DNA from: a virus
Lineage: Duplodnaviria > Caudoviricetes
Length of the DNA stretch: 35,292 nucleotides
Virus record (IMG/VR): IMGVR_UViG_3300030330_001066
Coordinates: 1 to 35,292 of that record
Reading direction: 5' to 3' (one strand)
The notes under the pieces were generated by a model that saw nothing but the letters and a program-made list of their open reading frames with translations, ran no database searches and was not told the origin of the DNA. Positions 1,807 to 21,071 of the stretch are shown here, one piece after another. The position numbers were made by a program, and so were the translations under genes. The first letter of the stretch is position 1, and each line of letters opens with the position of its first letter.

Positions 1807-1812
1807 TATCTA

Positions 1813-1977
1813 CTAAGCATTTAATGATTTAGACTTTTTCTTTGCTTGTCTAAGCGTATCACCAAATAAAACTCGCCTCTTTACATAAGATCTTTTGTCA
1901 GTAGGTAGCTTGTTTATAGCTCTTTGTTGTCTTTTAGAAACTTTACGTTTCTGTAATTTCATACTTGGTCTTTTCAT
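1813..1977 (-). CDS. Small basic hypothetical protein (54 aa; start moved to ATG 1977)
   Basis: MKRPSMKLQKRKVSKRQQ...; this start avoids overlap with the upstream gene and fills the gap. Confidence 0.5.
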   Translation of the reverse strand: MKRPSMKLQKRKVSKRQQRAINKLPTDKRSYVKRRVLFGDTLRQAKKKSKSLNA

Positions 1978-1993
1978 AACTTTATTGTACCTT

Positions 1994-2227
1994 TTATTCT
2001 GGTGGTGTGGGGAAAACAATTTTTGATAACTCTGTTTCGCCACTATATGTTTCTGGTAAATCTCTTAATTTTTGTCTATATGTAGCCCACTCTGCTTTTT
2101 TTGAGTCACTTAACGGAGAGTCTGCTGACTGTGTCCAATCAGTAGCTTTTAATAAACCATACCGTCTATCTTTTACAACTGTCCATATAGTCATATTAGG
2201 TATTTCGTCTGAAACTCGCTGTACCAT
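1994..2227 (-). CDS. Tail fibre assembly chaperone-like protein
   Basis: RYGLLKATDWTQSAD...EWATYRQKLRDLP...FPTPP signature; directly downstream of a fibre gene. Confidence 0.85.
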   Translation of the reverse strand: MVQRVSDEIPNMTIWTVVKDRRYGLLKATDWTQSADSPLSDSKKAEWATYRQKLRDLPETYSGETELSKIVFPTPPE

Positions 2228-2228
2228 A

Positions 2229-3701
2229 TTATATTCCTAACCCTTGTACTGTTATCATTGCGCTTCCTGCTCCACCATTACTACTTCCTGTTGGACCGTA
2301 ATCACTAATACCATGAAACAACCAAGCGTAATATGTTGTATTCGGAAGAAGATCTACTACACCAGTTAATATAACGCTACCAAGAACATGGTCACCAGCT
2401 GCTCTTACTATTGATGTTGATAATATAAAATCACTTGCTGTAGAAGATTGATACCCAGTAGCACTTGTTGTTTGTCTAACCGCTATAGCAGTTAAATTTT
2501 CTGCACGACCGTCCCCAACCAGTTGTCCTGTCGCATTTAAAGAACCAGTTACAATAAATTTTTTTGTTGCACTACCTCCTGCTGAGTCAGTCCAATTCGG
2601 TGTTGTCCATCCTACTTGAGTTTTATTACCGCTTGTATCAGTTGGTATATGCACATAATCTGTACCAAAAGCATGAAACGGACTACTTGCCCAATAAGTA
2701 GTTAAATAGTTATGCACCCCTATATCATCTGGAATCTGGCTATCAGTAACACTAGCAGATGCAACTACAGTTCCTACTGAACCTGTTACTGCCTTTCCTG
2801 CAACATTAAGTGAACCTGCTGTTATTCTATCTGCGGTCATATTGCCAGAAGTTATACTACCCGCACTTAAATTTATTACACTTATTTCACCAGCGTCAAG
2901 AGTTCCTGTAGTTATATTACTAGCGTTTAAATTTGTAATACTCATTTCTGAAGCATCTAATGTTCCAAAAATACCTGAAGCTGAAGTTAATTGGTTAGCT
3001 CCAATATTACCCGCAGTTATTGTAGCACTCGCTATAGAATTTGATGTAACTGCATTTGTTAAAATTTTAGGTGTAGTAATAGCGTCATCTGCTATTTTTG
3101 TTTCAGTAATAGCATCAGCAGCAATTTTAGTACCTGCAATCAAAACCGTAGTAGCATTTACCGAACCTGCAAACTGACTAAATATACCTGCAGTTGTTAC
3201 GTGTCTAATCCAATAATAAAACTCATCTCCAGGATCTACGCTGTCTACCCAAACAAAAGCCTCAGTAGTATCATGTCGCACCGCATTACTTAAATTGTTG
3301 TCACTAGAACGCCATACTTCTGTGTGTGCTAAGTTAGATATTTGTGCAAAGTTCCAATTTAAAATAATTTTAGTTGTACCTGCAGACGCAGCTAAGCCTG
3401 TAGGAGTTGGAGGAGCTGTTAAATCGTTAGTATCATCTAGTTTACCATCCACAAAAGTTGAACTAGAAGCAAAGTCAGTTACACCTGCACCTGCATTTGG
3501 ATCAAAAGGATTATCAAGTAGTTCTTTAGCCAAACCGCTATCAATTAGTTCTCTAAGAGTAACAGCTCTGTCTTTCGGGTCACCTCTACGACCAAGCCGT
3601 ACTTCTAGAATTTCTTTTATAGAATTATTAAAAGCTTCAGCCTCACGTTCATTCTTTGGAATCGCTGGTATTGAAGGTACTTGTGTCTTAGTAGTAGCCA
3701 T
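2229..3701 (-). CDS. Tail fibre / host-specificity protein
   Basis: FN3-like segment (APPTPTGL...HTEVWRS...YYWIRHV), ~10-aa IAADAITETK-type repeats, distinct C-terminal domain, followed by chaperone. Confidence 0.8.
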   Translation of the reverse strand: MATTKTQVPSIPAIPKNEREAEAFNNSIKEILEVRLGRRGDPKDRAVTLRELIDSGLAKELLDNPFDPNAGAGVTDFASSSTFVDGKLDDTNDLTAPPTPTGLAASAGTTKIILNWNFAQISNLAHTEVWRSSDNNLSNAVRHDTTEAFVWVDSVDPGDEFYYWIRHVTTAGIFSQFAGSVNATTVLIAGTKIAADAITETKIADDAITTPKILTNAVTSNSIASATITAGNIGANQLTSASGIFGTLDASEMSITNLNASNITTGTLDAGEISVINLSAGSITSGNMTADRITAGSLNVAGKAVTGSVGTVVASASVTDSQIPDDIGVHNYLTTYWASSPFHAFGTDYVHIPTDTSGNKTQVGWTTPNWTDSAGGSATKKFIVTGSLNATGQLVGDGRAENLTAIAVRQTTSATGYQSSTASDFILSTSIVRAAGDHVLGSVILTGVVDLLPNTTYYAWLFHGISDYGPTGSSNGGAGSAMITVQGLGI

Positions 3702-5450
3702 TTATAAAGCACGTATTTCTTGAATAGACTCTGCGATACACACTTCGTTTACAATTTTAGTAGATTGTATTTCTACAGAGTAAGTTTTGTGTACACCACT
3801 TGGTAATCTAACTACAGGTTCGAGTATTGTTACAGCACTGAAACTAGGAGTAGTGCCTGTAACTGTGTAAACACTACCAGACGCAGCTATAGTTGCATGA
3901 TAAATAACAGAGCCATCTCCATATACTTTTATTACCACTGGCCAGTCTTCAGCATCTACTTTTACAAACCCCATTCTACCAGGACGTTCAGGTACAAATG
4001 TTTTACTTCTCCAAGTAAACGTTTGATTTGTAGTACCGCCTTGAAACTCTTTAACTACTCCATTACCACTCGCAGGATCAATAATTAAATATAACGAGTT
4101 ATCATCAGGGTCTGTAAAGCCACCTGAAGCATCTGTAGTTGCTGTTTGTGTCAATGTTGTTATTCTTCGCTCACCAAAACGATTATCAAATATAAATCCG
4201 CCATAATTACTACCGCTTGTATACAATCCTACATAACGTCCTTCCCATAAAAATCCTTGTAAGACAGTAGGGTAATATTCAGCTCGCCATTGTGAAGGTG
4301 AAATTTGCCCTTCCGTTACAACTTGTACGTCAGTACCTGTCGCAGCAACCAACCCATCTGCTCCTGCATACAATACATACGGTCCCATATCTACCATTGA
4401 ACGTTTATTTAAACACGCTTGTGCTGCTTCTATACGAACTGCGCTCATAGATTGTGGATCTGTACCAATTACTAAATAAGGTGTGCCTTTTGTACCAACA
4501 AACAAGCCATTTCCTGCCATAGCAATAGCCACTATTTCCTCATCTAGAGTTATACGATACGCTACAGGCCAAGCATGTGGTAAAAACGGTTCAGAAAAAC
4601 ACAAACGTTTACCTGAGAATCCTGCAAATATACCATTTGGCATAGAGGTTAAACCACGCATTTGCCCGTTCGGGTACAAAGAACTGTCTTCATCAGGCGG
4701 AGCAATCCAGAAAGTAGAAGGTATAAGTTCTCCTAAATTAGCATTAGTAACAGAATCAGTAAAAGTAGCTACATTTAAATTAACTTCACCAACAAACTGA
4801 AACGCAGTAGTGTTTGAACCTGTATTTGATCTATATATTCGTTTTTTAGTTATGTTTGTATTACTTCTACTTGTACCACTACCTGCACTTGTACTCATGT
4901 TACCTACAGTTACAGTTTGTGCATCTACTTTAGTAAGCACAGTAGAAGCCGCGGACGGCGGTCCTTCTTCACCAAAACCAGACACAAAAGTGTACACATA
5001 TGATGTGCTAAATTTAGTCTGTGTTCCATCGTCTGACCCAGAAGCTATGCTTGCAGTAGGAGTATTTTCAGGCGCGGGTATACCTAAACGAAAAAAACCT
5101 CTAGGATATGCTCCCGAACCAGAAGCTATTAACTCTGTAGAACTAGCCATTCTAGGAAACGTATCTCCCGTCCAGTACAAACGTGCGTTAGCGTCATCAG
5201 GTATAGGTGCAGGTTGTACATCTACATCACTAGCCCACTCTAGCCAGTAATCTACACCGCCAAACTCGTATTTGTATATAGAAGTTTTACCTGAAGCGTT
5301 TAAAGTAGCTGTGGTGCTGTTGTCGGTTATAGGAACTAAACGTCCACTATCTAAAACTACATCTTGAGCTGTTTGTGCCATAGTATCTGCTAACAGTCTA
5401 GGAGATATCTGAGGTGCAATTCCTTTAAATGTTATTAATTTATAGTACAT
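3702..5450 (-). CDS. Tail nozzle / stabilisation protein (podovirus tail tubular-like)
   Basis: 582 aa, beta-rich; YVYTFVSGFGEEGPPS, KKRIYRS and LCFSEPFLPHAWP motifs seen in podophage tail proteins. Confidence 0.7.
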   Translation of the reverse strand: MYYKLITFKGIAPQISPRLLADTMAQTAQDVVLDSGRLVPITDNSTTATLNASGKTSIYKYEFGGVDYWLEWASDVDVQPAPIPDDANARLYWTGDTFPRMASSTELIASGSGAYPRGFFRLGIPAPENTPTASIASGSDDGTQTKFSTSYVYTFVSGFGEEGPPSAASTVLTKVDAQTVTVGNMSTSAGSGTSRSNTNITKKRIYRSNTGSNTTAFQFVGEVNLNVATFTDSVTNANLGELIPSTFWIAPPDEDSSLYPNGQMRGLTSMPNGIFAGFSGKRLCFSEPFLPHAWPVAYRITLDEEIVAIAMAGNGLFVGTKGTPYLVIGTDPQSMSAVRIEAAQACLNKRSMVDMGPYVLYAGADGLVAATGTDVQVVTEGQISPSQWRAEYYPTVLQGFLWEGRYVGLYTSGSNYGGFIFDNRFGERRITTLTQTATTDASGGFTDPDDNSLYLIIDPASGNGVVKEFQGGTTNQTFTWRSKTFVPERPGRMGFVKVDAEDWPVVIKVYGDGSVIYHATIAASGSVYTVTGTTPSFSAVTILEPVVRLPSGVHKTYSVEIQSTKIVNEVCIAESIQEIRAL

Positions 5451-5860
5451 TAGCCCTCCAGCAATAAATCTTTTAAGCGATGGCTTCTAGCCCCTACTTG
5501 TCTACTCCATTTAGAGTCAAGCATTTGCACACCAGCTTCTTCCCAGTCTCCTTTCTCAATAGCAGCTAAAAACTTTTTAAATCCTAATAACCTAGATAGA
5601 CCTAAATTAAAACACATATTTACTAACACACGCTGTCTTGTGTCTGTTAAATTTTTAAACCAAGCAAACGTAGCTTCTAATTCTTTTACACAAAGGTCTA
5701 TGTCATTGTTAAGTAGAAAATTAGATTCCTCTACTGTAATTCCTCGGTCATCAACATTTCTGCCTACTCCAATTGTATTCTTTCCTGCAGAACATTTGTA
5801 AAGAGTAAGAACTTCTCCTTCGTCTCGTTTCAGTTCTTCTATAAGTTTTTCTCTATTCAT
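5450..5860 (-). CDS. Endolysin, T4-lysozyme-like (GH24)
   Basis: LKRDEG...YKCSAGKNTIGVGRN catalytic region (Cys at the T4L Asp20 position), LVNMCFNLG, MLDSKWSRQVGAR. Confidence 0.9.
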   Translation of the reverse strand: MNREKLIEELKRDEGEVLTLYKCSAGKNTIGVGRNVDDRGITVEESNFLLNNDIDLCVKELEATFAWFKNLTDTRQRVLVNMCFNLGLSRLLGFKKFLAAIEKGDWEEAGVQMLDSKWSRQVGARSHRLKDLLLEG

Positions 5861-6401: not shown

Positions 6402-6851
6402 TCATTGAATGTATTTTTTACCTATCTCGTTATAGTACAATTCTTTAAAATTTATCTCTTGTATTAGTATAGGAGAAAATCCTGTTTGGTTTGTTATATG
6501 ATGAGCGTGGAGTCTAGCATAAGGAAATATAATATTAGGGCAATCTACCGCTAGGGCTTCTTCAATCTCGCTTTCGTCTTTGTAGTGACACAAAGTAAAT
6601 ATACCACTTTGAATAAAATTAAGTATGTATAAATAACTATCTTCATATTTAGACGTTATTTGAAACGAAAGCTCTACTTCAAATGCTTTTTCTTTGTTAA
6701 AAGATATAGAAGAAAACCCAGACTGACAAGCTAGGTCTGTTTCTACTTCAGGCGGTTGTTCTTGTAAATAACGAACAGCATCAGGTACTTCTATACTAGA
6801 TTCTTTTGTGTATACAGCAGATATTTTTATGTGTTTATTTGTGGTGGACAT
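6402..6851 (-). CDS. secB: SecB-like chaperone
   Basis: VYTKESSIEVP, QSGIF, CPNIIFPYAR, TGFSPILIQEINFKELY match the SecB consensus (YxKDxSFExP ... CPxILFPYAR ... GFPxLxLxPxNFxxLY); 149 aa. Confidence 0.9.
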   Translation of the reverse strand: MSTTNKHIKISAVYTKESSIEVPDAVRYLQEQPPEVETDLACQSGFSSISFNKEKAFEVELSFQITSKYEDSYLYILNFIQSGIFTLCHYKDESEIEEALAVDCPNIIFPYARLHAHHITNQTGFSPILIQEINFKELYYNEIGKKYIQ

Positions 6852-7569
6852 AGTGCATTTTCTCTCTTGTGTTTTTAATTTTAGTAAGGGTTTTGTTTGC
6901 TAACGAGGTAATACGAGTTGTTTCTTTTTTAGGAACTCCTTTTAGATAGGGCAATAATTTATCAAAACAGTACGCATAAATCTCTAATACGTTAATATTT
7001 TTTCGGTGTATAGGCCCAAGATAATTATGTATTAACGCTTGTTCTCCTAAAACCCCGTAATTAAAAGCGTCTATTGCAGCAGTAGACTCTTCTTCAAACA
7101 AAATATCGTCTTTGTGGTTCATGTATCTAGGCATATACAACAGTTTTTTATCTCTAACTGCTCCCGAGTCTTTTTCTGGTACTGTTTTCCACTTCTTAGG
7201 GTTTATTATAAATATAGATAAATCTAAAACTTTTTTATTAAGTTTTTCAGAACTATACTGATAATGCTCTTTAACCCTTTCATGGTCAGTAAACACCCCA
7301 TATCTGCTAACAGCCATATGGTATTTTTTTAATTTAGATTTAGTAGGAAGGTCTTTATTCTTTAAATTAACAACTAGCCCGCTTTTTATAACTAATGCTA
7401 TTTCATTAGTATTACTTAAAGTAGTAGCAATTCTACTTTTTAACATTTTGTCTTTAGTAATAACTTTATAAGTTATTTCTGGATTATTAATATCTAATGA
7501 ATTTGTTGTAAGTTTCAGTAGATTATTTTCTTCCAGTATTAAGACTTTTAGGGTTTTTAGGTTTAACAT
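6835..7569 (-). CDS. Divergent GT-A (GT8-like) glycosyltransferase-like protein
   Basis: LDLSIFIINPKKW resembles GT8 FNSGVxxINLxxW, YMPRYMN resembles LPxxYN, IHNYLGP resembles IIHYxG; no canonical DxD. True start uncertain. Confidence 0.45.
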   Translation of the reverse strand: MLNLKTLKVLILEENNLLKLTTNSLDINNPEITYKVITKDKMLKSRIATTLSNTNEIALVIKSGLVVNLKNKDLPTKSKLKKYHMAVSRYGVFTDHERVKEHYQYSSEKLNKKVLDLSIFIINPKKWKTVPEKDSGAVRDKKLLYMPRYMNHKDDILFEEESTAAIDAFNYGVLGEQALIHNYLGPIHRKNINVLEIYAYCFDKLLPYLKGVPKKETTRITSLANKTLTKIKNTREKMHYVHHK

Positions 7570-8422
7570 GAGGTATATCTTTAAAATACTTAAAAAAGTT
7601 TTTTATATTTTGTTTTGGATTTTCAGAATCATAGTAAATTAATCCTGAGTATTTTGACGACAGTATTCTTTTAAAATCATCAATAACAGGATATCCTTTT
7701 TCAAAAAGAACAGCGTATATCGGGGTGTAGGTTTTGGTTGCAATTTTTTTACGATCAAATAGCTCTATGCGTTTACCTTGAGATAAACCAATAAGTCCCA
7801 TTTCAGAGTTAGAAGTACACCCAATTTTTCTTGTTCTATTTAAAATGTTATGCCCTGACAGTTTTCTGTCTAACAAGTTTTGTTTACCATAACGGTTTCT
7901 TAAATAAGCCATAACAAACGGAGAAGTTAAAGGATGTGGTTTTAACACAGCTCCTTCTGTATCAATAGCTCTTTTCACTTTAATGTCATCTGTTATTTCT
8001 TTTATTATGTTACTTCCAGCTAAAAAAATAACATACGGGTATTCTTTTTTTGTTTGCTTCAACGCATACTTGTCTGTGTTATTTTTAGCTATATCTTGAA
8101 ATATCTTTTCGCCTTCTTCTGTAATGTCATCGTTTAGGGCATTCCTTAATACTTTCTTACAGTATAAAGTTGAAGCTGGTTTTAAATATACAAACTTAGT
8201 CATAACATCTGTATATAAATAACCTCTTATTTTATTTTCGTTCCCAAAGTCGTACCAAATATCGTATTCTAAATTAGTACCGTGGTTGCCTTTTTTTGGT
8301 AATAGATGATGTATCTTATTTAGTTTATTGTTTTCTTTTGATCTACGAATATTCCCAGATTTAAAAAAGTGTGCTATGTCATTATTAAGAACATCATTAA
8401 AAGCTAATGTCTCAATCGTCAT
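7523..8422 (-). CDS. KpsS/KpsC-like (GT-B, capsule-type) glycosyltransferase-like protein
   Basis: VLKPHP and CTSNSEMGLIGLSQGKRI resemble the KxHP and T-x-x-S-x-x-G-x-x-x-L-x-x-G-K motifs of KpsC/KpsS Kdo-transferase-type enzymes. Confidence 0.55.
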   Translation of the reverse strand: MTIETLAFNDVLNNDIAHFFKSGNIRRSKENNKLNKIHHLLPKKGNHGTNLEYDIWYDFGNENKIRGYLYTDVMTKFVYLKPASTLYCKKVLRNALNDDITEEGEKIFQDIAKNNTDKYALKQTKKEYPYVIFLAGSNIIKEITDDIKVKRAIDTEGAVLKPHPLTSPFVMAYLRNRYGKQNLLDRKLSGHNILNRTRKIGCTSNSEMGLIGLSQGKRIELFDRKKIATKTYTPIYAVLFEKGYPVIDDFKRILSSKYSGLIYYDSENPKQNIKNFFKYFKDIPHVKPKNPKSLNTGRK

Positions 8423-8554: not shown

Positions 8555-9529
8555 TTAATCCTTAATTTCACAGCTTATAATAATTTCAAAAGGGATTAGT
8601 AAATTACTTGTATCTCTTTTGTCTTCTGGATAATCGTAATATTTATTCCAAAAAATAATTGTTCTATCGTAATCCTTTTGCATTTTTACAGCAGCTTCTA
8701 ATGGGTTACCTGTAGCATTTGTATCTATATATGTTGCATTTTGATATGGATTTTCTCCAGCATACAAGCACAACCACCCACCAGAATTACTTATAACTAA
8801 TACTTTTTCATTCAAAATTTTGATGAAATCATCTAAATTATTAATAGCATCATGTTTTTCTAAAGTTAAACCTGAATGATTATATACAGTTTCAATGCTT
8901 TTTTTATTATATTTAGGCATTAAAGTAATTACATCTTCATTTTCTGGTATGTAACTTTCTGAATATAATGCAATCCTTTTTATATCAGGTTCTTGCCTAA
9001 GCGATTGTACTGCGTCTTCTATTGTATAATGTTGTGCGTTACCTACACTTATTACTGTTCTTAGGTTTGGTACATTCTCTAATAGTGCTTCACCAATACC
9101 ACCGCTTTGGGTAACTAAACCTATATCTCCAGTAGTTTTTCTATCTAAAAGAAAAGTAGAATAAGCATCACAATGAACACCCATACAGTTTGGTCCAAGT
9201 ATTTTTGCTTTGTTTTTTACAATTCCATACAGCTTTTTTTCTGTAAAATTATCTAAAGTATTAATAATTATAATTTTATTTGTACCTTTATTTATAATCT
9301 TAGTTACTTCTTCAATAATATTAGGTACTGCTACTATTGCTAAATCAGGAGTTTCTGGTAAATCATTGTATGAATCATGTTTAGTAATAAGATATAAGGG
9401 AACTTTAGTGCTTTCTAACAGAGAATCTCTAAGAGCAGCACCCCAATACTTGTTTTGAGATATAGCTTCATCAAGCGTTTTTGTAGAAGACCCTACAAGT
9501 GCTATTGAAGCAGGATTAAGAAAAGTCAT
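8555..9529 (-). CDS. CoA-binding protein, compact NDP-forming acyl-CoA synthetase alpha-like
   Basis: PASIALVGSS, PDLAIVAVP, ILGPNCMG, IGLVTQSGG, VISVGN, NHSG (matches SHTG phospho-His) and VISNSGG in canonical order. Confidence 0.85.
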   Translation of the reverse strand: MTFLNPASIALVGSSTKTLDEAISQNKYWGAALRDSLLESTKVPLYLITKHDSYNDLPETPDLAIVAVPNIIEEVTKIINKGTNKIIIINTLDNFTEKKLYGIVKNKAKILGPNCMGVHCDAYSTFLLDRKTTGDIGLVTQSGGIGEALLENVPNLRTVISVGNAQHYTIEDAVQSLRQEPDIKRIALYSESYIPENEDVITLMPKYNKKSIETVYNHSGLTLEKHDAINNLDDFIKILNEKVLVISNSGGWLCLYAGENPYQNATYIDTNATGNPLEAAVKMQKDYDRTIIFWNKYYDYPEDKRDTSNLLIPFEIIISCEIKD

Positions 9530-10086
9530 CCTGTAAAAGTTACTACTAGCTTTTTATATTTAAAACCTTTGTCGTGGTATTCTATAGTTATAGGATTAGA
9601 ATATTTAATCCATCCAGAGCCAGCACAATCAATATATGTCTTTTCCATATTAGAACCTTCTACAACCCATACACTAGATTTAACACAATTATCAGAAACA
9701 CTTTTATAAAATTCATCTGTTACTTTATGGTACTCTAAAGAATAACACCAACCTTGACTGCCACCAGCATCTTCTCTATACAAGTCTAGTTCATGGTTAA
9801 ACATTTTATCGCCTTGTAATTCTCGTCTACCACAACCATAATTTACTATTCTTCCATCTATGTCTAATTTAAAGATAGCATCACCAGCGTTGTCATCTCT
9901 GTTTTTAAATGCAGTTTTTATAGCGTCAAGTTTATCTGCTGTGCTAGAACTAACAGTTAAGTTAAATTCGTCCCATATTATATTTGGTTTATCTCCGTCA
10001 AAATAAGGTAATGATTTAGTAAAACATTCTTCAAAGATTGTTTGGTCTATATCACTGTAGTTAATTTTTGTTACAGTCATTGTCAT
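9526..10086 (-). CDS. Hypothetical protein (186 aa; start moved to ATG 10086)
   Basis: GGAGG at 10096-10100 precedes MTMTVTKINY; ATGA overlap with the downstream gene. Confidence 0.7.
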   Translation of the reverse strand: MTMTVTKINYSDIDQTIFEECFTKSLPYFDGDKPNIIWDEFNLTVSSSTADKLDAIKTAFKNRDDNAGDAIFKLDIDGRIVNYGCGRRELQGDKMFNHELDLYREDAGGSQGWCYSLEYHKVTDEFYKSVSDNCVKSSVWVVEGSNMEKTYIDCAGSGWIKYSNPITIEYHDKGFKYKKLVVTFTG

Positions 10087-10087
10087 T

Positions 10088-10900
10088 TTATGCTTCCTCC
10101 CATGAATCGCCGTCCCAATATCTAGCGTTGTGTGCATTTGCCGAAGCTACTTCTGTTTCAAATAACGAACCTGTGTTTCCTGTGGCTGTAATCCTTTCAA
10201 ATATAATAGTAGCTGTAGTGGCAGTTGTGTTAAAAGTTGTGGTCGTGCTCGCAGACGTTTCAACAGTCGTATCGAATGTGGTAGTCGTATTAAAGGTGGT
10301 GGTCGTGCTCACACTTGTTGCAAAAGTGGTCGTAGTGTTAAAAGTCGTTGTAGTTGATCTACTCGTGTTAAAAGTTGTAGTCGTGCTTCTGGTTGTGTTA
10401 AACGAAGTTGTACGAGAAGTAGTTCTAGAAGTAGTGTGCGATGTGGTACGCGAAGTATTCTGAGACCCTCCACCTTTACCTGGTAGGTTTGTACTGAAAG
10501 TAGTCGTGTAACTTGTAGTGTACGAAGTTGAGTAAGAAGTAGTATTAGAAGTCCCAAAAGTTGTTGTTGTACTATGTGATGTTGCAAATGTTGTTGTAGT
10601 GCTTTGAGTCGTGCTGGTTGATCTAGTTGTATTAAAACTAGTCGTAGTACTTCTGGTAGTGCTAGTTGACCTGGTTGTAGAAAAAGTAGTATTGAAAGTC
10701 GTAGTCGTGCTGGCACTTGTAGAAAATGTGGTAGTTGTGTTTTTTGTAGTTTGTTTTATGGCATTAAAAAAAGTAGTAAGACTGCCATCTGTTTCTTTTA
10801 CAACAGCATAATTTACAAAACGTAGTGTTCCATCAGTAACTTTTACGAGAATAGGGTTTGGTGTTTCAATTGAGTCACCGTCCCATATTTTAATTGCCAT
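10088..10900 (-). CDS. Thr/Ser-rich fibre-associated protein, predicted giant beta-hairpin
   Basis: Residues 51-231 are mostly T/S; central LPGKGGGSQ turn; WDGDS motif at both termini. Confidence 0.85.
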   Translation of the reverse strand: MAIKIWDGDSIETPNPILVKVTDGTLRFVNYAVVKETDGSLTTFFNAIKQTTKNTTTTFSTSASTTTTFNTTFSTTRSTSTTRSTTTSFNTTRSTSTTQSTTTTFATSHSTTTTFGTSNTTSYSTSYTTSYTTTFSTNLPGKGGGSQNTSRTTSHTTSRTTSRTTSFNTTRSTTTTFNTSRSTTTTFNTTTTFATSVSTTTTFNTTTTFDTTVETSASTTTTFNTTATTATIIFERITATGNTGSLFETEVASANAHNARYWDGDSWEEA

Positions 10901-10909
10901 GCTAAATTC

Positions 10910-11998
10910 TCATGATACAACATACCAGACAAAACCAATTTTTTTACCAGATCCATCTGTAGGTGCAGAAGTTACAATCTCAAAGTCTCTAGTGTCAAAA
11001 TCTGTGAGAGCTACTTGTTTCATAGTTCCTGCATCATTTACCACTACTCTATCTGCGTCTGCTAATGTTGTAGAAGTAGCACTTGTATCACCGTCTATTA
11101 CGTTGAGCTCTGCTGCAGTACTTGTAACACCATCTAAAATATTTAGTTCTGCAGCTGTAGAGGTAACTCCATCAAGTATATTTAATTCTGCTGCTGTGCT
11201 AGTAACTCCATCTAATATGTTTAGTTCGGCTGCTGTGCTAGTAACTCCATCAAGAATATTAAGTTCTGCTGCAGTAGAAGTAACACCATCAAGGATATTT
11301 AACTCAGCGGTACTAGAAGTAACACCATCTAAAGTTTGAACTTCTGCTGCTGTTAGGTCTGCTAAAGAACTAGCTGTATCACTTGCCATTGTTGCAAGCT
11401 CTGTTAACTCTGCATCTAGTGGCTGTTTTGCATCGAGTTGAGTCTGGACATTAGAAGTAACGCCATCGACATGATTAATCTCTGCTGTCGTAGCAGTTAC
11501 TCCATCCATTATATTAAGTTCTGCAGCAGTCGAAGTAACTCCGTCCAGAATATTTAACTCTGCAGTAGTTAATGTAGCTCCGTCAAGAATGTTTAGTTCT
11601 GCAGCTGTAGATGTTGTAGCTAGACTTACTGATCCACTAGAGACTGAAAAATCATCTGAATTAAATGAAGCTATACCTTTAACTGAATCAGTAGCATCTA
11701 CAAGATTTGTTAGTTCTTCTAAAGCTTTAACGTTGACTCGAAGTTGAAGTTTATCACCAGTAGAAAAAGAACGTGCGGACGTATTATCCTGTGCACGAAC
11801 TACAGTAAGAGTAGTGCCTGATATTCCAGTCACTTTTACTATTTCTACATTTGCACCGTCATCCATTGTAGCGTAGAAGTAGTCACTTCCTGAAGGTGTA
11901 GGAAAAGAAGCACTACTAGCTACGCTAATACTAGTTGTACTAGTATTTACATCAGCACTTAAAAGTGTGCCCGCATTGTTTTTTAATAAAACCCCCAT
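10910..11998 (-). CDS. Tail fibre protein with 13-aa repeats
   Basis: N-terminal EIVKVTGISGTTLTVVRAQDNT domain; about 11 TSTAAELNILDGV-type repeats; GGAG RBS. Confidence 0.85.
   Translation of the reverse strand: MGVLLKNNAGTLLSADVNTSTTSISVASSASFPTPSGSDYFYATMDDGANVEIVKVTGISGTTLTVVRAQDNTSARSFSTGDKLQLRVNVKALEELTNLVDATDSVKGIASFNSDDFSVSSGSVSLATTSTAAELNILDGATLTTAELNILDGVTSTAAELNIMDGVTATTAEINHVDGVTSNVQTQLDAKQPLDAELTELATMASDTASSLADLTAAEVQTLDGVTSSTAELNILDGVTSTAAELNILDGVTSTAAELNILDGVTSTAAELNILDGVTSTAAELNILDGVTSTAAELNVIDGDTSATSTTLADADRVVVNDAGTMKQVALTDFDTRDFEIVTSAPTDGSGKKIGFVWYVVS
11090..11616 (-). repeat. 39-bp coding tandem repeats in two blocks (7 and 4 units)
   Basis: Encode TSTAAELNILDGV; units differ mostly at synonymous sites. 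Confidence 0.9.
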
Positions 11999-13460: not shown

Positions 13461-16400
13461 TTATAATATTGCAGCTGGAGTGAAATCACTTACTTCTGCT
13501 TTACCTCTTGCTATATCTTCTACTCGTCCTACTGTAGGACCAAAGAATGGAACCCACCAAGACCCTCCATAATCAGAGGCTTCATACATAGGTATTGCTA
13601 TACCAAATGGTCCTAATGGACCTGCTCTGTCTAGTATTTCAAACATATACTCACCCCAACTCATAGAGTCAGTTCTAAATGCGCTCCTATCTCCACCACG
13701 AGCAAAATATTTAGCCCACTCTCTAGTTTCTAAGCCTATCATAGTTAGAGGTAATATAGTTAAAGCACCCATAACTAAAGGTAAAGAAGCCCCTGAAATA
13801 GTACCATCTTCAGCGTATCTATTTTTAGTTTCGCGCAACGCTCCACCTATAATGTTTTTACCGTAAGCATAGAAGAAAGACTTTAATTGCCAAATTAAAG
13901 CTGTATATGGGTTAGAAGCCCAAGCGGGACGTTCTGCTGAGTTAGGTCTTACAATAGACTCATCTACAAACCTACCTAATGCAGCACGTACACGCTCTCC
14001 ACTCTCCCCTTCAAAAACAAATTGAGTAGATCCTTTTTGTTTAGCTGCGTTTATATCTTCAACTGATACTTGTAGTTCTTCTAAATATCGACTGTATCGC
14101 TTACGTTCAGCTGCTGACAAGTTAGGATCTGAAAGTTTGTTAGCTGTATTAGTCAAAAACGCTTTACCCATACCTGTTGCATACACTCTACTAAACCTTG
14201 TAAAGTTTTCTAACATTGTAACTCTAAAGAACATATCAGTAATTTTTTGAGCTTTAGGTACTAAGAAACCTAATTGAGTAGCATTAATATACATTGTATT
14301 TATAGAATCAAACGTTACAGTACCTACTTCTCTAGCAAAATCATTAGCATCTTGTTTGTTATCAAAGTAGTTTCTAACTTGTTTTAACGCTTCTTTAAAC
14401 CCATCTAAATCTTTAGAACGTAGAACAGGCCCTGCTAAGTCAGGCAAAGATGCTAATGTAGCAAATGTTAAATAAGTTACTACGTTTAGAGTAAGTAATG
14501 CACTGTTTATGTTACGCATAAGCGGTGACATGTTTAGACCAGTTTTACCTAACATTGCTTGTAAAGCACTTCTAGTTACTTCCCTATCACTTCTGTCTTC
14601 AATTCTTTGCAACATTAATTCAGATGCTTTCCAACCTCTTAACGTTTCACCTTCTTTAGCTAGAGTTCTATACATTGTTTCAGAAATATCGTTAGATACT
14701 CGTCTTTCATTTAAAAGTTCTAAATCTGCGTTTGTAACTACAGTTTGTACTTTGTTTAAATACTCTAACCTTTTAGTCATGTCCTCTATGTACTTACGTA
14801 AAGAAGTTCCAGCGTCTTCTAGTACTCCAATGTTTCGTAGTTCTGTGTTGCTAATTTTTTTAAAATATTTAGCTCTAGATTTTGCCATACCAATAGTTAT
14901 GGCAGAAGTAACATCTTTATCGCTTTCTATATCTGCGTCTATAACATCGTCTATATTGTGTTCATGTTTATTAGTTACAGCTTCAACAATTTTATCCCAG
15001 TCTGCTTTAACAGTAGGATTCTTCTCGGCTAATAAAAGAGCTAAACGTTTACGTAACTCAGGGCTATTTTGAAGTTCGTGCATAGCTAGTATACGAGGGA
15101 AGAACCTAGGAAGAGCTTTTATACTAGGATCTACACCTTCAATGTTATTCTTATGAAACTCTTGAAGGTAAACTCGTATGCTTTTAGCTACAGGACTTAA
15201 CTCAGAAGTAGGTTTTGTATCGTCTTCTGCTTCTAAGAAAAATCTTTCAGACGCTTCAAAATCAGGGTCCCCAGCACTATAACGACCAAACTTACCTTTT
15301 TTATGTTTAGGTAACAACGCTAACATGTCATTCATGCGTTTGTGTATAAGTAGAATCCTAGCGTTTAAATAACCTGTATTTACCTTAGATTGAGAAGGAG
15401 AATACATAGCGTTAGCTAACTCAGGGCTGTACTGAGATACAAAGTTGTGTGCAGGGTATAAAAAGTATTTTACCCCCCAATGTTTTCTATCAGAAGGTAA
15501 CAAATCTCTATTTTGCTCTAAAAACTCTATTACTTTAGCTTTAAACCCTGCGGCTCTTTTTTTAATGTTGGGAGCTCTTTCTTCAATGTTTTTAATTACA
15601 CGATCCGACATTTCTCTGGCAATAACTTGTTCAGATAGAGTAGCTTCGTTTGGATCATTGTCTACATAGTACTCTCTGACTTGATTCATGTATTCATTAA
15701 AAGGAACACTTACTGCAAAACGGCTTCTAAATATTTTATTTAATTCTTTCCAAGCATCCCGTATTTTAGCTACAGTTCGTTTAAAATAACTGTCTACTAT
15801 ATTTTGTACTTTAATAGGTTTTTTCCCTTTAAATAAGCTTTCAGATGCTCTAATAGATTTAGCTTTAGCTGCATCGCTTCGATCTACTTCCACAGTACCA
15901 AATTTATCAAGTGGTTTAAAAATTGGAATAAACCTACCACTTTTGTCTTTTCTACCATCGCTGTAAGCAAACCCATCTATTAATGTCTCTCGAGATAAAG
16001 TATCCAATAGCCATCTAGATGTTTGATCTGAATACCATTCTTCAAACCCTAGTTTAGGATCTTGGTACGCACTAGGCGCATTTGGTTTTGCTTTAGCTTT
16101 TTCATATTCAGCGTATAAACGGTCTCTAATTCCTGGCTTATTTAAGAAGTTACGTTTTTCTTGTTGGTATATAGCATGTCCTACTTCGTGCCCTAAACTA
16201 AACAAAGCTTGTAGTTGTTGTACTTTAGTAGGTTTATCTGGCATATAAACAATAATAATATCTTTATCTTTATAGCCTAAATAAGCACCTTTTTGATTCT
16301 TCTTACCTATTTGATCTTTACCGTTAAATTCTTTTATAGCATTAACCTGTTGTTGCATGTCATCTAACACAGTCAAATCTAAAGAAGTTTCAGCTCCGCT

Positions 16401-19400
16401 TCTAGCTTTTCTAATAAACATTTCAGCTTCTACATGACTCATAATGGTTAAAGACTTTTTATATTTAAATACCTTTTTAAGGAAAGTTTTTAATTGTTGT
16501 TGTAACCTTCTATCAAATCCTTTACCTGTAATTCTGACCTCATCTTTTTTTGCAAGCTTCTCTTTTTCATATTTCAATTGATCAACTTCGTAGTCTTTTC
16601 TAGGATTAGTAGGAGTGCCGAGTTCTATGTCTTTTGCTTTAGTGTCAAACTGTAAACCTCTTTCGGCTGGTAACTCTGCTGCAGAATCAACTTTGCTTTC
16701 CCCTTGTGTTTCTATTGCATCTAAATACGCTGCGCTGTCAATAGTTCCTTTTTCGTCTACTTGGTACGCAGCTCTTACAGGTTGTTGTCCTGGCTCAAAT
16801 AAGTTACCAAAATCATCTCCGTATAGATCGTATAAATCTTCTTTCAACTCTCGTATACGATCATGGACATTTATTTTATCTCCTACTTTGTATCCTAATT
16901 CTCTAAGACTAGTACTTTGTTCGAGAGGCCTAGAGCGAAGTGCAGAAGGGGTAGGACCAAAAACATCATCTCGTTTTATTTTTCTTCTTTGAAGTATTCT
17001 TTTTCGAGCTCTTTCTACTCTTTTATCACTATCGTCTAATAGTTTTTTAGTAACTATTATTTCTCCATAAGGGTTACCTTTTTCATCTTTAAATTGAGGT
17101 TCAGGCACTTGTGCGTCACGAAACTTAAACTTATTCAACGAAGTATCGCCGATTTTTTCTGTTTCAACCTCTACGGTAGGAGGAGCAGGCTGTGGTCTGC
17201 CTCCCTCTCGTAATTCTATTCTTTTTCCCGTATCGTCAGTAGCAATTTCATATGTTACTCCCTCTGGAGTCATAATAGGCCGCTCTGTTAGACGAACTCT
17301 AACCTTAGTAACAGTAGGGGCTATATAACCTACTATCCGTCCTCCTTGTCTTCTTGGTACAACTTGAGAAACATTAACCCCGTATTTATTAGCTACAAAC
17401 TCTTGTTCGTTTTGAGGGTCTGATTTCTTTCTTTCTCTAAAGCTAACCCTATTTTGTTTAGCTTCAAGTTGTTGTTTTGCATTAAGAGCTTTTGCTTCGT
17501 TAAAACGGTCAAGTCTTTTTTGCAGATACTCTATCTGTTGTAGTTTCTGTTGAACAGACAAAGTAAGTCTTTGATCTTTAGCTACAGCTTTTTTACTTTT
17601 AGTTCCTAGCATACCTAAAGAAAACATCTTGCCTTGTCCCATATCGTATATAGCAGCTTCGTCAATATCTTTATCAAAAGCAGCCTCAAACACAGTTGTT
17701 TTTCCGTCTTTTCTTAAAGCGTATACTTTAGATAAAGGTTTTCCGTTATAACTTAATATGTAACCTTGGGCAGCTAACTCTGAAACTATGGTAGAAAAAC
17801 CTCCTGCAATTTGTTCTTCTCGAGTAAAAGTACCAAAAGTAGACTCAGACTCTGCTTTATTAATATCCATTCCCAGTTGTACTAAAGGTTGTAGGTATAA
17901 TCCGTCTTGTCCTACTTGGCGTGTGCCACCTCCTCTTTTTGCTTTTGTAATTGCACTTACTTCGGTTGGATTTTCGTAGCTACTATTTATATCTTTTACT
18001 CTAGAAAGCTTCCACCCTGGTGTTTTTGCTTTAGTTTGTCTAGCGGCTCTATCTGCTCTGTTTATAGCAACTTCTATTCTTCCTCCTGTATCCATACCTC
18101 CCATGATATCGGGAGATATTATCCGTAAAGAATAAGTTGGGTTATTAGGGTCGCTATCCATGTTTCTAACAGGAGCATAGAAAAATGCTTGGTCTGTATC
18201 TCCAAGATACTGAGGGTTACGTTTCAAAGCTACAAAGTCTTTTAAGAAACCAGCAGGTAGTTTACTAACTAGTTTTGTAACATCCTCAACTAATTGTGTT
18301 TTATTGCTGTCTGTTGATTCTTGTTCCTTAACTAAATAGTTAATAACTTCTTCTGCATCTTTAGCTCTAGACTCAATAGCGTCTTCTGTGCGTCTTTTAA
18401 ACTGTACATCAGACTCGTTTTTATTTCTTTTAATAGGATTATCAGGGTCGTACTGTTTATATGTTTTTCTTTGTCCTTTTGTATCAAGCTTAAACTCTCC
18501 TCTAGCTTCTTCTAATACAAACTCACTACCAGGCTTAGCGTCAAGCGCATCTATCTCGCCTTCTTCCCCTAAATTAACATCTACATTTTCTTCAGTTTGT
18601 TTTAGTATTGAAAGTTGTTGAGCCAGAATGTCATTAAAAGGAGTGTCAGTCATACCCCTACGTACAGGTTCGTCAGTGTCGGTTTTCTCTTTAACAGGTT
18701 TAGGATTTAAATTAGCTTCTACTTTTTCTTCAGTAAAGAGTTCTTTACTATTAAGTTCTACAGTATCGCCAGGGTACTTTTCTTCAAAGTTAAATGTAGT
18801 TTGTTCTATGTTTTCGTCAGAAGTACTTTGATAATCTAATACGTCTTTGTCTTCGTCACGTACTACTATCACGTTTTGGTCGTTAGTATTTTGTCCTTGA
18901 GTATACCCAAGGATATCCTTAATACTTTCTTCAGTTAATCCGTCTTCTTTAAGCCTTTGATCTACATAGGCATTGTATTTTGTGTTTCTATCATCTACAA
19001 GAACTATACCTTGCCTACCTTCGTCAACTTCTAGTGGAATTATATTGCTGTCTGCTCCTGCTGCAATAATAATATCTGTAGCCCTAGCTCGCTGTTCTTC
19101 TAATGTAAGGTTTCCTGCAGGTAAGAACACAGATTTCCTTCCCTTTTCAGGGTTAACCAAAGCTCTTACTTGTTTTACAGCCCAAGCAAAAGGTTCAATA
19201 TCAGTTGTTCCATCTTCTTTTCTAGCTTTCGCTTTAGAGTATACTTCAGCTACACTTGGCGCATCTTCTATAAAATTTTTGGCTTTACCTATAACTCTAG
19301 AGGCAACTTCAGCGGGAGCTCGCATAGCCCCACCAGCAACTACTCCTCCAAAAATACCTTCTGCAATTCGCAAGTTTGCTTCTCTAGCCGTATACTCGTC

Positions 19401-21071
19401 ATCTATAGCAAATCGTTGTGCTACAAATAAACCTTCTTGAGCTCCTTCGGTAGCACCTTCTACTGCAGAACCTTTTACTAAACCTGTTCCAAAAGATTTA
19501 GCTACATTTTTCATCCAACCTGTAGTTTCGTCTATTTCTTTTTGAGCTGCATTTTTTGCAGCAGCAGTTTTAGCTGCATTCTTTTTAGCTTGAGCTTTTG
19601 CGTTTCTACCAAGAACATTCTTTACCATTGCGCCTACAAATATTTTTTCAGATAAAGTACCAAGTAACGCTTGTGGAATACCCATAGCATTAGCTAAGGC
19701 TGCTTCTCTTTTAGTTAATTTATACCCTGCATCTGAATACTCTCCTAAAGATTGAGCTGTTCCCGATACATATTCTTGAGACGCTGCTCCTGCCCAAAAC
19801 CCATAAGAAAAAGGTCGAGTTTGCAAATACCCTGCTACTTCTCCATATCCTTTTGCTCCAGACTCAGCTAATGCTTTTCTTGGAATACGTCCTTTACCTC
19901 TAGTTTTAACCTTACCTGCCATTTTGTAAGCAGAATCTAAAATAGCAGCTTCATTAGCACTAAGAGGTGGGCCACCTTTTTTAGCAGCTAAACTTTTGTT
20001 AACGATACGTTCCATCATTTCTTTTGTAACTTTTTTAGAACTAGCACTTAACACACCTTTACCTAAAGCTTGCACTCCCAACCCTGTAAACCCTGAAGCC
20101 ATAGTAGCTCCCATATAAGGTAAGAACTGTCCAAACGCTTTAATTGTTTGTTCTACAAGACCATCAAAAGTAGGAGCTTCTAAAAATTGCTCGAACGTGC
20201 CAAACCCTCGTAATAAGTCAGCGGTATGTCGTTCATGTACTTCTGCTAAATTTAAAGCTAGTTCTGCTTCTTCTGGGTCGTTAGTTAATAAATTAAATGC
20301 TCCTTTGAAACGTTGTATGTCAGTTTTTACAGTAGAAACGCCTGCTTTAAACGCATCTCCAAACTTACCGCTAGTAGTAGCTGCTACACGTTGTACAGTT
20401 GGATCTAATGCAGGAGCAACTTGAGTTGCAAAAAGCGCATCAGTAATTCGTCTTTCGACAGCTCCACGCGGTCCTGTATACCCAAAAGAAGCAGGTAAAC
20501 TAGAAGGAAGATCTGACATTTCTCTTCGTACAGGAAATAACTCTGCTACAGGTGTAGACCTAGTTGAAGGTGTAGGGTCTGTAGGAGTTGGATCTGTTGA
20601 AACAGGCGTCTGCGTGTCCGTCATACTAGCTAGAACATCAGAAAACTTTTTAGCCCTATCGGGTGTTTGTTTTTTAGCCCAGTCTGAGTCTAAAACTTCT
20701 ACTGCTGCACCTGAATAATCTCCCGATTTCATAAGATTCCACGTTTTATCAAACGCTTTAGGGTTTACATCAATGTTATTCCAACTTTCCCCTAATTGAT
20801 AATTTACCGAGGTAAGACGTCCAAGATCAACGGGTTTAGAAAGCTCATTGTTTTGATTTACAGCTGCGTTATAACTTTTTTGTACATCTTCTTCAAACCA
20901 ACTATCTATTTGATCTTGCGGTACTTTAGACCCTGGAGGGTATTTTTTTAGTTCTTCTTCACTTAATAAGTGCCCATAGCCTGCAGAAAACCCTGTAGCG
21001 TCTGGGTAAACATCGTCACGAAAACCTTCTTCTGACTTTATAAGGTCCTTAATACTTTGAGGTACAGCCAC
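13461..21071 (-). CDS. Giant internal virion / ejection protein with N-terminal lysozyme domain and HExxH motif
   Basis: 2536 aa, GTG start; IKSEEGFRDDVYPDATGFSAGYGH...LDSDWAKKQTPDRA; LGHEVGH...FEEW; located after smaller ejection genes. Confidence 0.85.
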   Translation of the reverse strand: MAVPQSIKDLIKSEEGFRDDVYPDATGFSAGYGHLLSEEELKKYPPGSKVPQDQIDSWFEEDVQKSYNAAVNQNNELSKPVDLGRLTSVNYQLGESWNNIDVNPKAFDKTWNLMKSGDYSGAAVEVLDSDWAKKQTPDRAKKFSDVLASMTDTQTPVSTDPTPTDPTPSTRSTPVAELFPVRREMSDLPSSLPASFGYTGPRGAVERRITDALFATQVAPALDPTVQRVAATTSGKFGDAFKAGVSTVKTDIQRFKGAFNLLTNDPEEAELALNLAEVHERHTADLLRGFGTFEQFLEAPTFDGLVEQTIKAFGQFLPYMGATMASGFTGLGVQALGKGVLSASSKKVTKEMMERIVNKSLAAKKGGPPLSANEAAILDSAYKMAGKVKTRGKGRIPRKALAESGAKGYGEVAGYLQTRPFSYGFWAGAASQEYVSGTAQSLGEYSDAGYKLTKREAALANAMGIPQALLGTLSEKIFVGAMVKNVLGRNAKAQAKKNAAKTAAAKNAAQKEIDETTGWMKNVAKSFGTGLVKGSAVEGATEGAQEGLFVAQRFAIDDEYTAREANLRIAEGIFGGVVAGGAMRAPAEVASRVIGKAKNFIEDAPSVAEVYSKAKARKEDGTTDIEPFAWAVKQVRALVNPEKGRKSVFLPAGNLTLEEQRARATDIIIAAGADSNIIPLEVDEGRQGIVLVDDRNTKYNAYVDQRLKEDGLTEESIKDILGYTQGQNTNDQNVIVVRDEDKDVLDYQSTSDENIEQTTFNFEEKYPGDTVELNSKELFTEEKVEANLNPKPVKEKTDTDEPVRRGMTDTPFNDILAQQLSILKQTEENVDVNLGEEGEIDALDAKPGSEFVLEEARGEFKLDTKGQRKTYKQYDPDNPIKRNKNESDVQFKRRTEDAIESRAKDAEEVINYLVKEQESTDSNKTQLVEDVTKLVSKLPAGFLKDFVALKRNPQYLGDTDQAFFYAPVRNMDSDPNNPTYSLRIISPDIMGGMDTGGRIEVAINRADRAARQTKAKTPGWKLSRVKDINSSYENPTEVSAITKAKRGGGTRQVGQDGLYLQPLVQLGMDINKAESESTFGTFTREEQIAGGFSTIVSELAAQGYILSYNGKPLSKVYALRKDGKTTVFEAAFDKDIDEAAIYDMGQGKMFSLGMLGTKSKKAVAKDQRLTLSVQQKLQQIEYLQKRLDRFNEAKALNAKQQLEAKQNRVSFRERKKSDPQNEQEFVANKYGVNVSQVVPRRQGGRIVGYIAPTVTKVRVRLTERPIMTPEGVTYEIATDDTGKRIELREGGRPQPAPPTVEVETEKIGDTSLNKFKFRDAQVPEPQFKDEKGNPYGEIIVTKKLLDDSDKRVERARKRILQRRKIKRDDVFGPTPSALRSRPLEQSTSLRELGYKVGDKINVHDRIRELKEDLYDLYGDDFGNLFEPGQQPVRAAYQVDEKGTIDSAAYLDAIETQGESKVDSAAELPAERGLQFDTKAKDIELGTPTNPRKDYEVDQLKYEKEKLAKKDEVRITGKGFDRRLQQQLKTFLKKVFKYKKSLTIMSHVEAEMFIRKARSGAETSLDLTVLDDMQQQVNAIKEFNGKDQIGKKNQKGAYLGYKDKDIIIVYMPDKPTKVQQLQALFSLGHEVGHAIYQQEKRNFLNKPGIRDRLYAEYEKAKAKPNAPSAYQDPKLGFEEWYSDQTSRWLLDTLSRETLIDGFAYSDGRKDKSGRFIPIFKPLDKFGTVEVDRSDAAKAKSIRASESLFKGKKPIKVQNIVDSYFKRTVAKIRDAWKELNKIFRSRFAVSVPFNEYMNQVREYYVDNDPNEATLSEQVIAREMSDRVIKNIEERAPNIKKRAAGFKAKVIEFLEQNRDLLPSDRKHWGVKYFLYPAHNFVSQYSPELANAMYSPSQSKVNTGYLNARILLIHKRMNDMLALLPKHKKGKFGRYSAGDPDFEASERFFLEAEDDTKPTSELSPVAKSIRVYLQEFHKNNIEGVDPSIKALPRFFPRILAMHELQNSPELRKRLALLLAEKNPTVKADWDKIVEAVTNKHEHNIDDVIDADIESDKDVTSAITIGMAKSRAKYFKKISNTELRNIGVLEDAGTSLRKYIEDMTKRLEYLNKVQTVVTNADLELLNERRVSNDISETMYRTLAKEGETLRGWKASELMLQRIEDRSDREVTRSALQAMLGKTGLNMSPLMRNINSALLTLNVVTYLTFATLASLPDLAGPVLRSKDLDGFKEALKQVRNYFDNKQDANDFAREVGTVTFDSINTMYINATQLGFLVPKAQKITDMFFRVTMLENFTRFSRVYATGMGKAFLTNTANKLSDPNLSAAERKRYSRYLEELQVSVEDINAAKQKGSTQFVFEGESGERVRAALGRFVDESIVRPNSAERPAWASNPYTALIWQLKSFFYAYGKNIIGGALRETKNRYAEDGTISGASLPLVMGALTILPLTMIGLETREWAKYFARGGDRSAFRTDSMSWGEYMFEILDRAGPLGPFGIAIPMYEASDYGGSWWVPFFGPTVGRVEDIARGKAEVSDFTPAAIL

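Follow-up and report, generated by a model that had tools for sequence, protein, structure and literature searches.

Mirrored residue code in a threonine-rich phage protein family points to a probable fold-back hairpin stalk on tail fibres

Chains that run out and return to their starting point are known from the SMC and Rad50 proteins, whose antiparallel coiled-coil arms are matched in length and fold back so that both ends lie at one pole and the hinge or tip at the other. Cross-strand aromatic-cation pairs combined with Thr-Thr pairs occur in the Trp/Arg ladder of thrombospondin type-1 repeats and in designed Thr-rich aromatic-cation hairpins, all of which are thin and have little core. In needles of the gp37 type, His-x-His pairs have a metal-binding role. 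The closest described system is the long tail fibre protein gp37 of phage T4, which, in the accessible portion of PMC9659904, forms a needle of six antiparallel beta-strands ending in a distal, variable head, with conserved flanks around it; the accessible portion of PMC3004832 gives the needle a size of about 150 by 25 angstroms.

The window analysed here is the whole 35,292-base stretch of a viral record (IMGVR_UViG_3300030330_001066), which is linear and by estimate about 59% complete. Its genes, nearly all of them on the minus strand, include those for a terminase, a P22-like portal, a major capsid protein and SU10-type adaptors besides a set of tail-fibre genes, and the virus is taken as an uncultured marine podophage. 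Its major capsid protein is nearest to those of the Pseudomonas phages phiR18 and KPP25 (55%). Marine metagenome was the label of 19 of the 20 runs listed with matching DNA; one RNA run contained 7% of the sequence words. The region 13461-21071 (minus strand) codes for a 2,536-aa virion protein that carries a lysozyme domain at its N-terminus and is likely an ejection protein; a second lysozyme lies at 5450-5860, and CsgG and CsgF curli-secretion genes lie at 287-1478 (minus strand). Such curli genes have been reported in marine pelagiphage genomes in PMC9599517, which treats curli genes and glycosyltransferases of marine podophages and, in its accessible part, contains neither "threonine" nor "tail fiber". 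The window carries a single copy of the mirror-coded gene studied here, and the features of this gene and its surroundings are as follows.

10088..10900, minus strand: 270-aa mirror-coded Thr-rich protein (open reading frame; pair and shuffle analysis)
10751..10900, minus strand: N-terminal base segment, residues 1-50, conserved family-wide (alignments)
10487..10750, minus strand: outgoing arm, residues 51-138 (mirror register)
10460..10486, minus strand: central turn, residues 139-147, Gly-rich; replaced in relatives by other loops or a domain of 70-90 residues
10196..10459, minus strand: returning arm, residues 148-235, mirror complement of the outgoing arm
10091..10195, minus strand: C-terminal base segment, residues 236-270, conserved family-wide (alignments)
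10910..11998, minus strand: 362-aa tail fibre, directly upstream of the 270-aa gene (PHROG tail-fibre matches at the N-terminus)
10913..10990, minus strand: conserved peptide, the last 26 residues of the 362-aa fibre, putative docking site (travels with the hairpin gene)
9526..10137, minus strand: 203-aa gene directly downstream of the hairpin gene, often adjoining it in relatives
7523..8422, minus strand: 299-aa co-travelling protein, weakly similar to CMP-sugar (KpsS/GT52-type) glycosyltransferases, candidate fibre modifier
6835..7569, minus strand: 244-aa protein, following the 299-aa gene in most loci; no family match

A reading of the letters without database searches (below, the sequence-only reading) had described 17 residue pairs facing each other across the turn at i + j = 286, each with exactly one Phe or Tyr and all at odd positions, and the motif WDGDS at both termini. 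All 17 pairs were present in the 270-aa sequence, the single aromatic and the odd positions held for every one of them, and the motif was found at both ends. When large residues were defined independently of that list of pairs, register 286 contained 15 large-residue pairs and the next best register 11. The shuffle check that had been proposed bore the pattern out, as simple residue shuffles (n = 2,000) gave at most 10 such pairs; block shuffles that preserved the 4- and 6-residue blocks (n = 3,000) reached 15 five times. Counting one aromatic opposite a residue other than Thr or Ser, the observed score was 17, with a maximum of 13 and not one 17 among the 3,000 block shuffles. The same order of 4- and 6-residue spacings would occur in two arms by chance in about 1 of 8,000 cases, and full aromatic/non-aromatic complementarity in about 1 of 19,000. 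Threonine makes up 49% of the arms and stands at every second residue, interrupted every 4-6 residues by bulky pairs. Ice-binding proteins bind ice by a flat, regular Thr array, and the sequence-only reading had named water or ice ordering, next to glycosylation and adhesion, as a possible use of the Thr/Ser array.

Other origins of the pattern were considered and rejected. A DNA hairpin or inverted repeat does not account for the mirror, as only 5 inverted pairs were present (15-23 nt, 73-80% complementary) and these lay off the mirror; because there is no matching inverted repeat and all four Thr codons are used in the gene, the mirror belongs to the protein and not to the DNA. A parallel register was also dismissed: the repetitive arms let direct-repeat offsets score as high as 16, but the mirror alone is tied to the termini across the different lengths. 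Concerning assembly, a 1,361-base contig with 1 difference was found in two of the 4 runs compared, and a study from 2025 contained the entire stretch of 1,401 bases, ungapped and differing at 28 positions; among the differences listed for the gene in the 2025 run, 9 of 10 were synonymous and the remaining one changed Ser to Thr. Independent assemblies thus carry the gene gap-free and with mostly synonymous differences, which speaks against an assembly artefact.

Relatives were retrieved as 48 proteins, 32 and 46 viral loci (overlapping), 52 representatives, 2 genome loci and 71 metagenome loci, the latter from the best 80 of 113 matches. A search with residues 1-55 for longer relatives scored none; such relatives were instead recovered by scanning contigs. 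Among 50,697 annotated phage records, tblastn with the query found no match. The 48-protein, the two viral-locus and the metagenome-locus searches supplied a register set of 90 distinct sequences, each of full length and with the two terminal domains, the query included, covering 55 lengths from 234 to 1,486 aa. With one anchor placed in each terminal domain, the mirror constant was compared with the sum of the anchors over 61 registers. An antiparallel fold-back in a fixed register, as had been proposed, agrees with the outcome, as the mirror constant equalled the anchor sum plus 2, as unique best register, in 81 of the 90 homologues, which are kin, so that the counts are not independent trials. 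Among the nine exceptions three were at +1, one at +3, and five had indels in one arm; the three at +1 are near-identical 556-aa proteins with 42 pairs each, and the +3 case reflects a single extra residue. Two earlier and stricter arm definitions had placed +2 in only 55 and 63 of the 90 sequences, because their Thr/Ser window stopped early and cut the arms short.

Arm length in these homologues ranged from about 60 to 694 residues, more than tenfold, and the 270-aa protein is a short member with a plain loop in place of a tip domain. At the upper end (L144), 117 of 124 aromatic pairs followed the rule along arms of about 694 residues without a fixed period, and with such long members chance becomes untenable as an explanation. 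Paired indels in the two arms had also been predicted. In a test independent of the code, based on the distance from the anchor to a conserved tip motif in each arm, 52 sequences were testable (38 had no recognisable motif), and the arms were matched in 45 of them. Uncompensated arms, named beforehand as an observation that would count against the hairpin, did occur in the other 7, each of which had a matched sibling that differed by 0-7 nt and one indel. In the four exceptions checked, the one-arm deletion lay at exact repeats of 8-41 nt. In this sample, therefore, all unmatched arms appear to be fresh variants or assembly errors, and none marks a diverged lineage.

Growth of the arms is visible in a 988-aa member from the genome of SAR92 clade bacterium H921 (L153), in which 76 of 82 pairs followed the rule. 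Each arm contains five near-identical 60-nt repeats, exactly mirrored at 305-404 and 604-703 and differing by 0-3 nt within an arm, which implies that both arms grew recently and by an equal amount. When the DNA was tested for recent mirrored duplications, the mirror came out ahead in only 31 of 54 loci overall, though 6 of 6 long loci were positive. A change in length likely starts as a slippage indel in one arm, which would persist only if the other arm then acquires a matching indel. Judged by register and arm length together, most relatives retain the mirror by altering both halves together. The L153 locus looks phage-like, with the 988-aa member flanked by a collagen fibre and by genes that resemble the 299-aa and 244-aa proteins by eye, and continues into head-tail-connector-like genes; its presence in SAR92 clade bacterium H921 is a possible host link.

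The residue code was described on 80 sequences with at least 80% of their aromatic pairs in the rule; as these were selected for good pairing, the following values are descriptive. Key pairs kept to one parity with 3 exceptions among 1,533, their spacing was mostly 4 or 6, and Thr occupied the positions at plus and minus 2 in 95-98%. The partner of the aromatic was Arg in 42%, Lys in 21% and Asn in 10%, followed by Ile, His, Ala and Gln. Aromatic-partner pairs numbered 1,530 where 370 were expected, and aromatic-aromatic pairs were avoided 18-fold (8 observed, 145 expected). Eight comparisons between sequences of the same length yielded 22 changes of state, of which 6 were complete side swaps at fixed positions, 13 were one-sided and 3 shifted a key pair to Thr-Thr or back. 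The opposite face consists to 98% of Ser, Thr, Ala, Asn, Asp and Gly, with preferences for Asn-Ser (2.1-fold) and Ala-Ala (3-fold) pairs. The mean side-chain volume of this second face is 42 cubic angstroms and that of the aromatic face 77, and by rough geometry the lumen of a six-stranded barrel offers 25-47 cubic angstroms. Ten Asn-x-Ser/Thr sequons, mostly Phe-Asn-Thr-Thr/Ser, lie within residues 54-224 of the query; in the longest relatives Asp largely takes the place of the sequon Asn and the arms turn acidic.

In the family alignments both termini were conserved and the centre was variable. The centre is either a short turn, for which at least four types of motif occur (9 residues in the query), or a Tyr/Trp/Gly-rich domain of 70-90 residues that varies even among close relatives. 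From this pattern the centre is read as an exchangeable tip, which was not part of the earlier model. The code was also found on other bases: all 16 proteins with very short termini were mirrored at their length plus 9 to 11. Among 25 proteins tested, no mirror was detected in Cr30 gp254, P0033 and P0066, and the long P0064, P0078 and P0085 were scored without a shuffle control. Gp41 of Caulobacter phage Lullwater showed a weak mirror (9 pairs, shuffle maximum 8), and KVP40.0254 of Vibrio phage KVP40 had 12 mirror pairs, a number reached by none of 100 shuffles. P0085 has mirror-type arms around a much larger centre that resembles a beta-propeller by eye; P0079 likewise has mirror-type arms and a much larger centre, and P0064 has two hairpin-like blocks. 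The stalk may thus carry very different cargo. On a 188-kb contig (L025), a Thr-rich frame of 1,322 residues at 1809-5777 with different termini has a mirror peak of 148 pairs against 114 in the next register, and is followed by a gene that resembles the 299-aa protein by eye.

Directly upstream of the hairpin gene, a conserved fibre-end peptide terminates the preceding gene in 42 of 62 loci and was found within 4.5 kb in 51; the remaining 11 loci have at most 2.5 kb of upstream DNA. The last 25 or so residues of the fibre are kept on unrelated fibre bodies of differing length and type, one of which is the collagen fibre of L153. This conserved C-terminal peptide is likely a dock for the hairpin protein, and it is an addition to the model of the sequence-only reading. 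The 362-aa fibre of the window contains about ten repeats of 13 residues, and relatives with the same end range from about 300 to more than 1,000 aa.

Downstream, homologues of the 203-aa gene lie directly behind the hairpin gene, including in all six long members; the 203-aa protein had no Pfam or PHROG match. Its open reading frame as listed (9526-10137) shares 50 bases with the end of the hairpin gene, and the true start is probably a later Met just past the stop. The 299-aa gene was matched in 41 of 62 loci, usually followed by the 244-aa gene; the six loci with members of 714-1,486 aa had no 299-aa gene in the DNA fetched. PF05159 was found on 2 of 19 members of the 299-aa family (E 0.05), and relatives of the 299-aa protein matched PF07922 (E 5e-4) and PF05159 (E 0.006), each below the curated cut-off; in the Atlas cluster of the protein, PF05159 was assigned to 14% of the members (score 0.94), and no profile match was obtained in the PDB. 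Relatives of this gene also adjoin the Thr-rich genes of KVP40 and Lullwater. The 299-aa protein is therefore a possible but weak candidate for a glycosyltransferase-like modifier of exposed Thr and Ser. A GT8-like reading of the 244-aa protein, which came from an impression by eye, found no support in the searches.

In several loci (L001, L003, L010, L087, L090, L091, L100, L101 and L139) the gene order is shuffled, and the 299-aa/244-aa pair, often together with SecB, precedes the hairpin gene, on the side of the fibre, and does not follow it. The window itself encodes a SecB chaperone at 6402-6851 (minus strand; PF02556, E 3e-31), which in relatives is often found within 3.5 kb of the hairpin gene. 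SecB could keep the long arms unfolded ahead of zipping. The tail-fibre cluster also contains an acyl-CoA synthetase-like gene, at 8555-9529 (minus strand), for a 324-aa protein with a succinyl-CoA-ligase-like flavodoxin domain (PF13607), and this protein co-occurs in some relatives.

Prediction of the monomer by AlphaFold, which had been suggested as a check, placed hairpin-like strands on either side of the turn at low confidence. With 11 sequences (pLDDT 31) the strands were 124-137 and 149-162, whose ends sum to 286; with 55 sequences (pLDDT 48) they were 48-72, 107-138, 146-177 and 212-238, with end sums of 284-286. Pairing was here derived from strand ends and not from contacts, and the automatic alignments, the kind used for these predictions, retained 71% of the mirror pairs. 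In the latter model the mid-arm region is unstructured, and the ends of the tip strands sum to 284, not 286. The predicted strands agree weakly with a hairpin. The Atlas model of the 270-aa protein has a pTM of 0.15, and its look-alike clusters are unnamed viral proteins. Fold searches with the low-confidence pLDDT-48 model against viral, PDB and wide structural libraries returned nothing significant, which for such a model speaks neither for novelty nor for absence; the best structural neighbours were generic long hairpins (Foldseek E 0.03 or worse, Z at most 4.1 over about 49 residues). The 270-aa protein had no Pfam match at E 0.01, no PHROG match at E 0.001 and, as a profile against PDB sequences, nothing under E 0.4. 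A description of the family was not found in the largely open-access literature searched at the level of abstracts. The code is real, strongly conserved and apparently undescribed.

We regard the mirror, the paired indels and the side swaps as the trace of selection on an in-register antiparallel contact, and on this ground we are confident that the two arms would pair as antiparallel beta-strands of a hairpin. On one face Thr would lie opposite Thr and, every 4 or 6 residues, one Phe or Tyr opposite a partner of the Arg/Lys/Asn type. The irregular 4/6 spacing would act as a barcode that permits one register, so that a long low-complexity hairpin could not slip and the Thr-rich chain could find its single register among many near-equivalent ones. 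The termini probably form a base that binds the C-terminal peptide of the fibre, with the far end serving as a variable probe of the host surface and arm length setting the reach. By arithmetic, a straight hairpin would reach about 29 nm here and one in a tilted barrel 19-24 nm, whereas L144 could extend to about 230 nm. The earlier estimate of about 30 nm thus fits the 270-aa member if straight and does not extend to the relatives, given their range of arm lengths, nor to a tilted barrel, which shortens the stalk by a fifth to a third.

How the hairpins are assembled is less certain. The balance tips slightly towards a bundle of three hairpins forming a six-stranded needle, in which the Ser/Thr/Ala/Asn/Asp/Gly face would fill a narrow core and the aromatic-cation pairs would lie outside. 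The same hairpin and dock could instead exist as a single twisted two-stranded ribbon whose concave face carries the aromatic-cation and Thr-Thr pairs, as the sequence-only reading proposed. This we consider a possible but lesser alternative. The single parity of the key pairs and the Thr at plus and minus 2 are what one class of cross-strand pair predicts, the charged partners, mainly Arg and Lys, suit access to solvent, and monomeric adhesins can dock on trimeric fibres, as in gp38 of the T2 type. However, it is hard to see why a fully exposed second face should lack Lys, Arg and aromatics as strictly as is observed, and the avoidance of aromatic-aromatic pairs would be unexpected, since such pairs are favourable in free hairpins. 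The weak structural neighbours of the model, none significant, are hairpins that oligomerise into barrels, and a bundle accounts at least as well for the small second face and for the docking context. We favour the bundle over the lone ribbon because the small-residue face fits the barrel lumen by rough volume and because at least one carrier fibre is a collagen; collagen is trimeric. Taken as a whole, the model of a fold-back hairpin stalk docked on the fibre tip in a three-hairpin bundle with the small face inward has, in our estimate, an even chance of being right.

A trimeric gp37-like needle with the Phe/Arg face inside would place three aromatics and three partners in each core layer between Thr layers, with anions balancing the charge. 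The rule of exactly one aromatic per pair resembles a limit of space, the aromatic face is the more invariant of the two, and gp37 shares the topology (accessible part of PMC9659904). Nevertheless, the volume of this face exceeds the rough estimate for the lumen of a six-stranded barrel, three Arg or Lys would be buried every 4-6 residues, and His-x-His pairs are lacking; we judge this arrangement improbable. Pairing between chains, with arm 1 of one molecule against arm 2 of another in a domain-swapped dimer, ring or open polymer, would leave the same code in the sequence as pairing within a chain. As the mirror extends up to the 9-residue Gly-rich turn, both AlphaFold models put strands on either side of it, and the two termini are conserved together as one base, we consider such pairing likewise improbable. 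Least plausible of all is a disordered mucin-like linker or non-virion protein whose mirror is a by-product of repeat evolution. The low prediction confidence, the high Thr content of the arms and the transferase-like neighbour would suit such a protein, whereas the mirror has no counterpart in the DNA, all Thr codons are in use, and non-periodic complementarity over 694 residues together with paired indels needs selection on contact between the arms. Membership among mucin-like Ser/Thr/Pro linkers was rejected on the single Pro in residues 51-233, the strict two-face pattern and the paired changes in length.

On the whole, the evidence leans towards a widespread and undescribed class of phage appendages, in which hairpin stalks of about 20 to more than 200 nm, "base-paired" with their own reverse, would dock on a fibre peptide, carry exchangeable tips and maybe a coat of sugar. 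If the fold is right, Thr-rich low-complexity phage proteins that resemble disordered linkers would be precisely registered rods, and natural beta-hairpins would exist that are many times longer than those known to us from solved structures. The stalk is a candidate organ of host recognition in abundant uncultured marine phages. The code is simple enough to test and reuse, as arm length, register and tip are separable, and if true it would provide a ready design rule for programmable beta-strand zippers. The family also offers a clean system for the evolution of compensatory indels, with unmatched intermediates visible in metagenomes. Testing is practical because the cultured phage KVP40 and the bacterial genome SAR92 H921 carry relatives.

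Compared with the known systems, the SMC and Rad50 arms are alpha-helical heptads and their function is unrelated, in contrast to the beta-strand residue code described here. The thrombospondin ladder and the designed hairpins are short modules and peptides, whereas the present family would carry one non-periodic code over hundreds of residues that evolves by paired indels. The stems of beta pore-forming toxins, the lower-collar proteins of phi29 and P68 and the FliF ring, which appeared as non-significant neighbours, share the geometry of a long amphipathic two-stranded hairpin, but are far shorter and have no sequence relation to the query; to our knowledge, a mirror code has not been recognised in any of them. 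The same mirror code is found in the C-terminal half of KVP40.0254 (NP_899500.1; phrog_30374), whose gene is followed, two genes on, by a relative of the 299-aa gene. This protein, annotated as hypothetical and encoded by a T4-like phage, differs in its N-terminal domain and in its arms of about 55 residues, and has no tblastn match to the query.

The likeness to T4 gp37 is the closest. At the sequence level, and in a low-confidence model, the 270-aa protein shares a chain that runs out and back and whose variable central tip is flanked by conserved segments, and its predicted position is likewise the far end of a tail fibre. In contrast to gp37, which has 7 His-x-His pairs in residues 881-1008, the query has 0. 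This segment of gp37 is rich in Ser, Gly, Thr and His and has no standout aromatic-partner register (top registers 7, 7, 7, 6 and 6). The query has no homology to the collar or needle in Pfam, PHROG or PDB profile searches, and gp37 was not listed by the fold searches, a negative that carries no weight with so uncertain a model. A further difference is that the stalk of the query is a separate gene, with about 60 to 694 residues per arm in the family. By analogy, the 270-aa protein resembles the fold-back needle of T4 gp37 in its working and stands outside the gp37 family.
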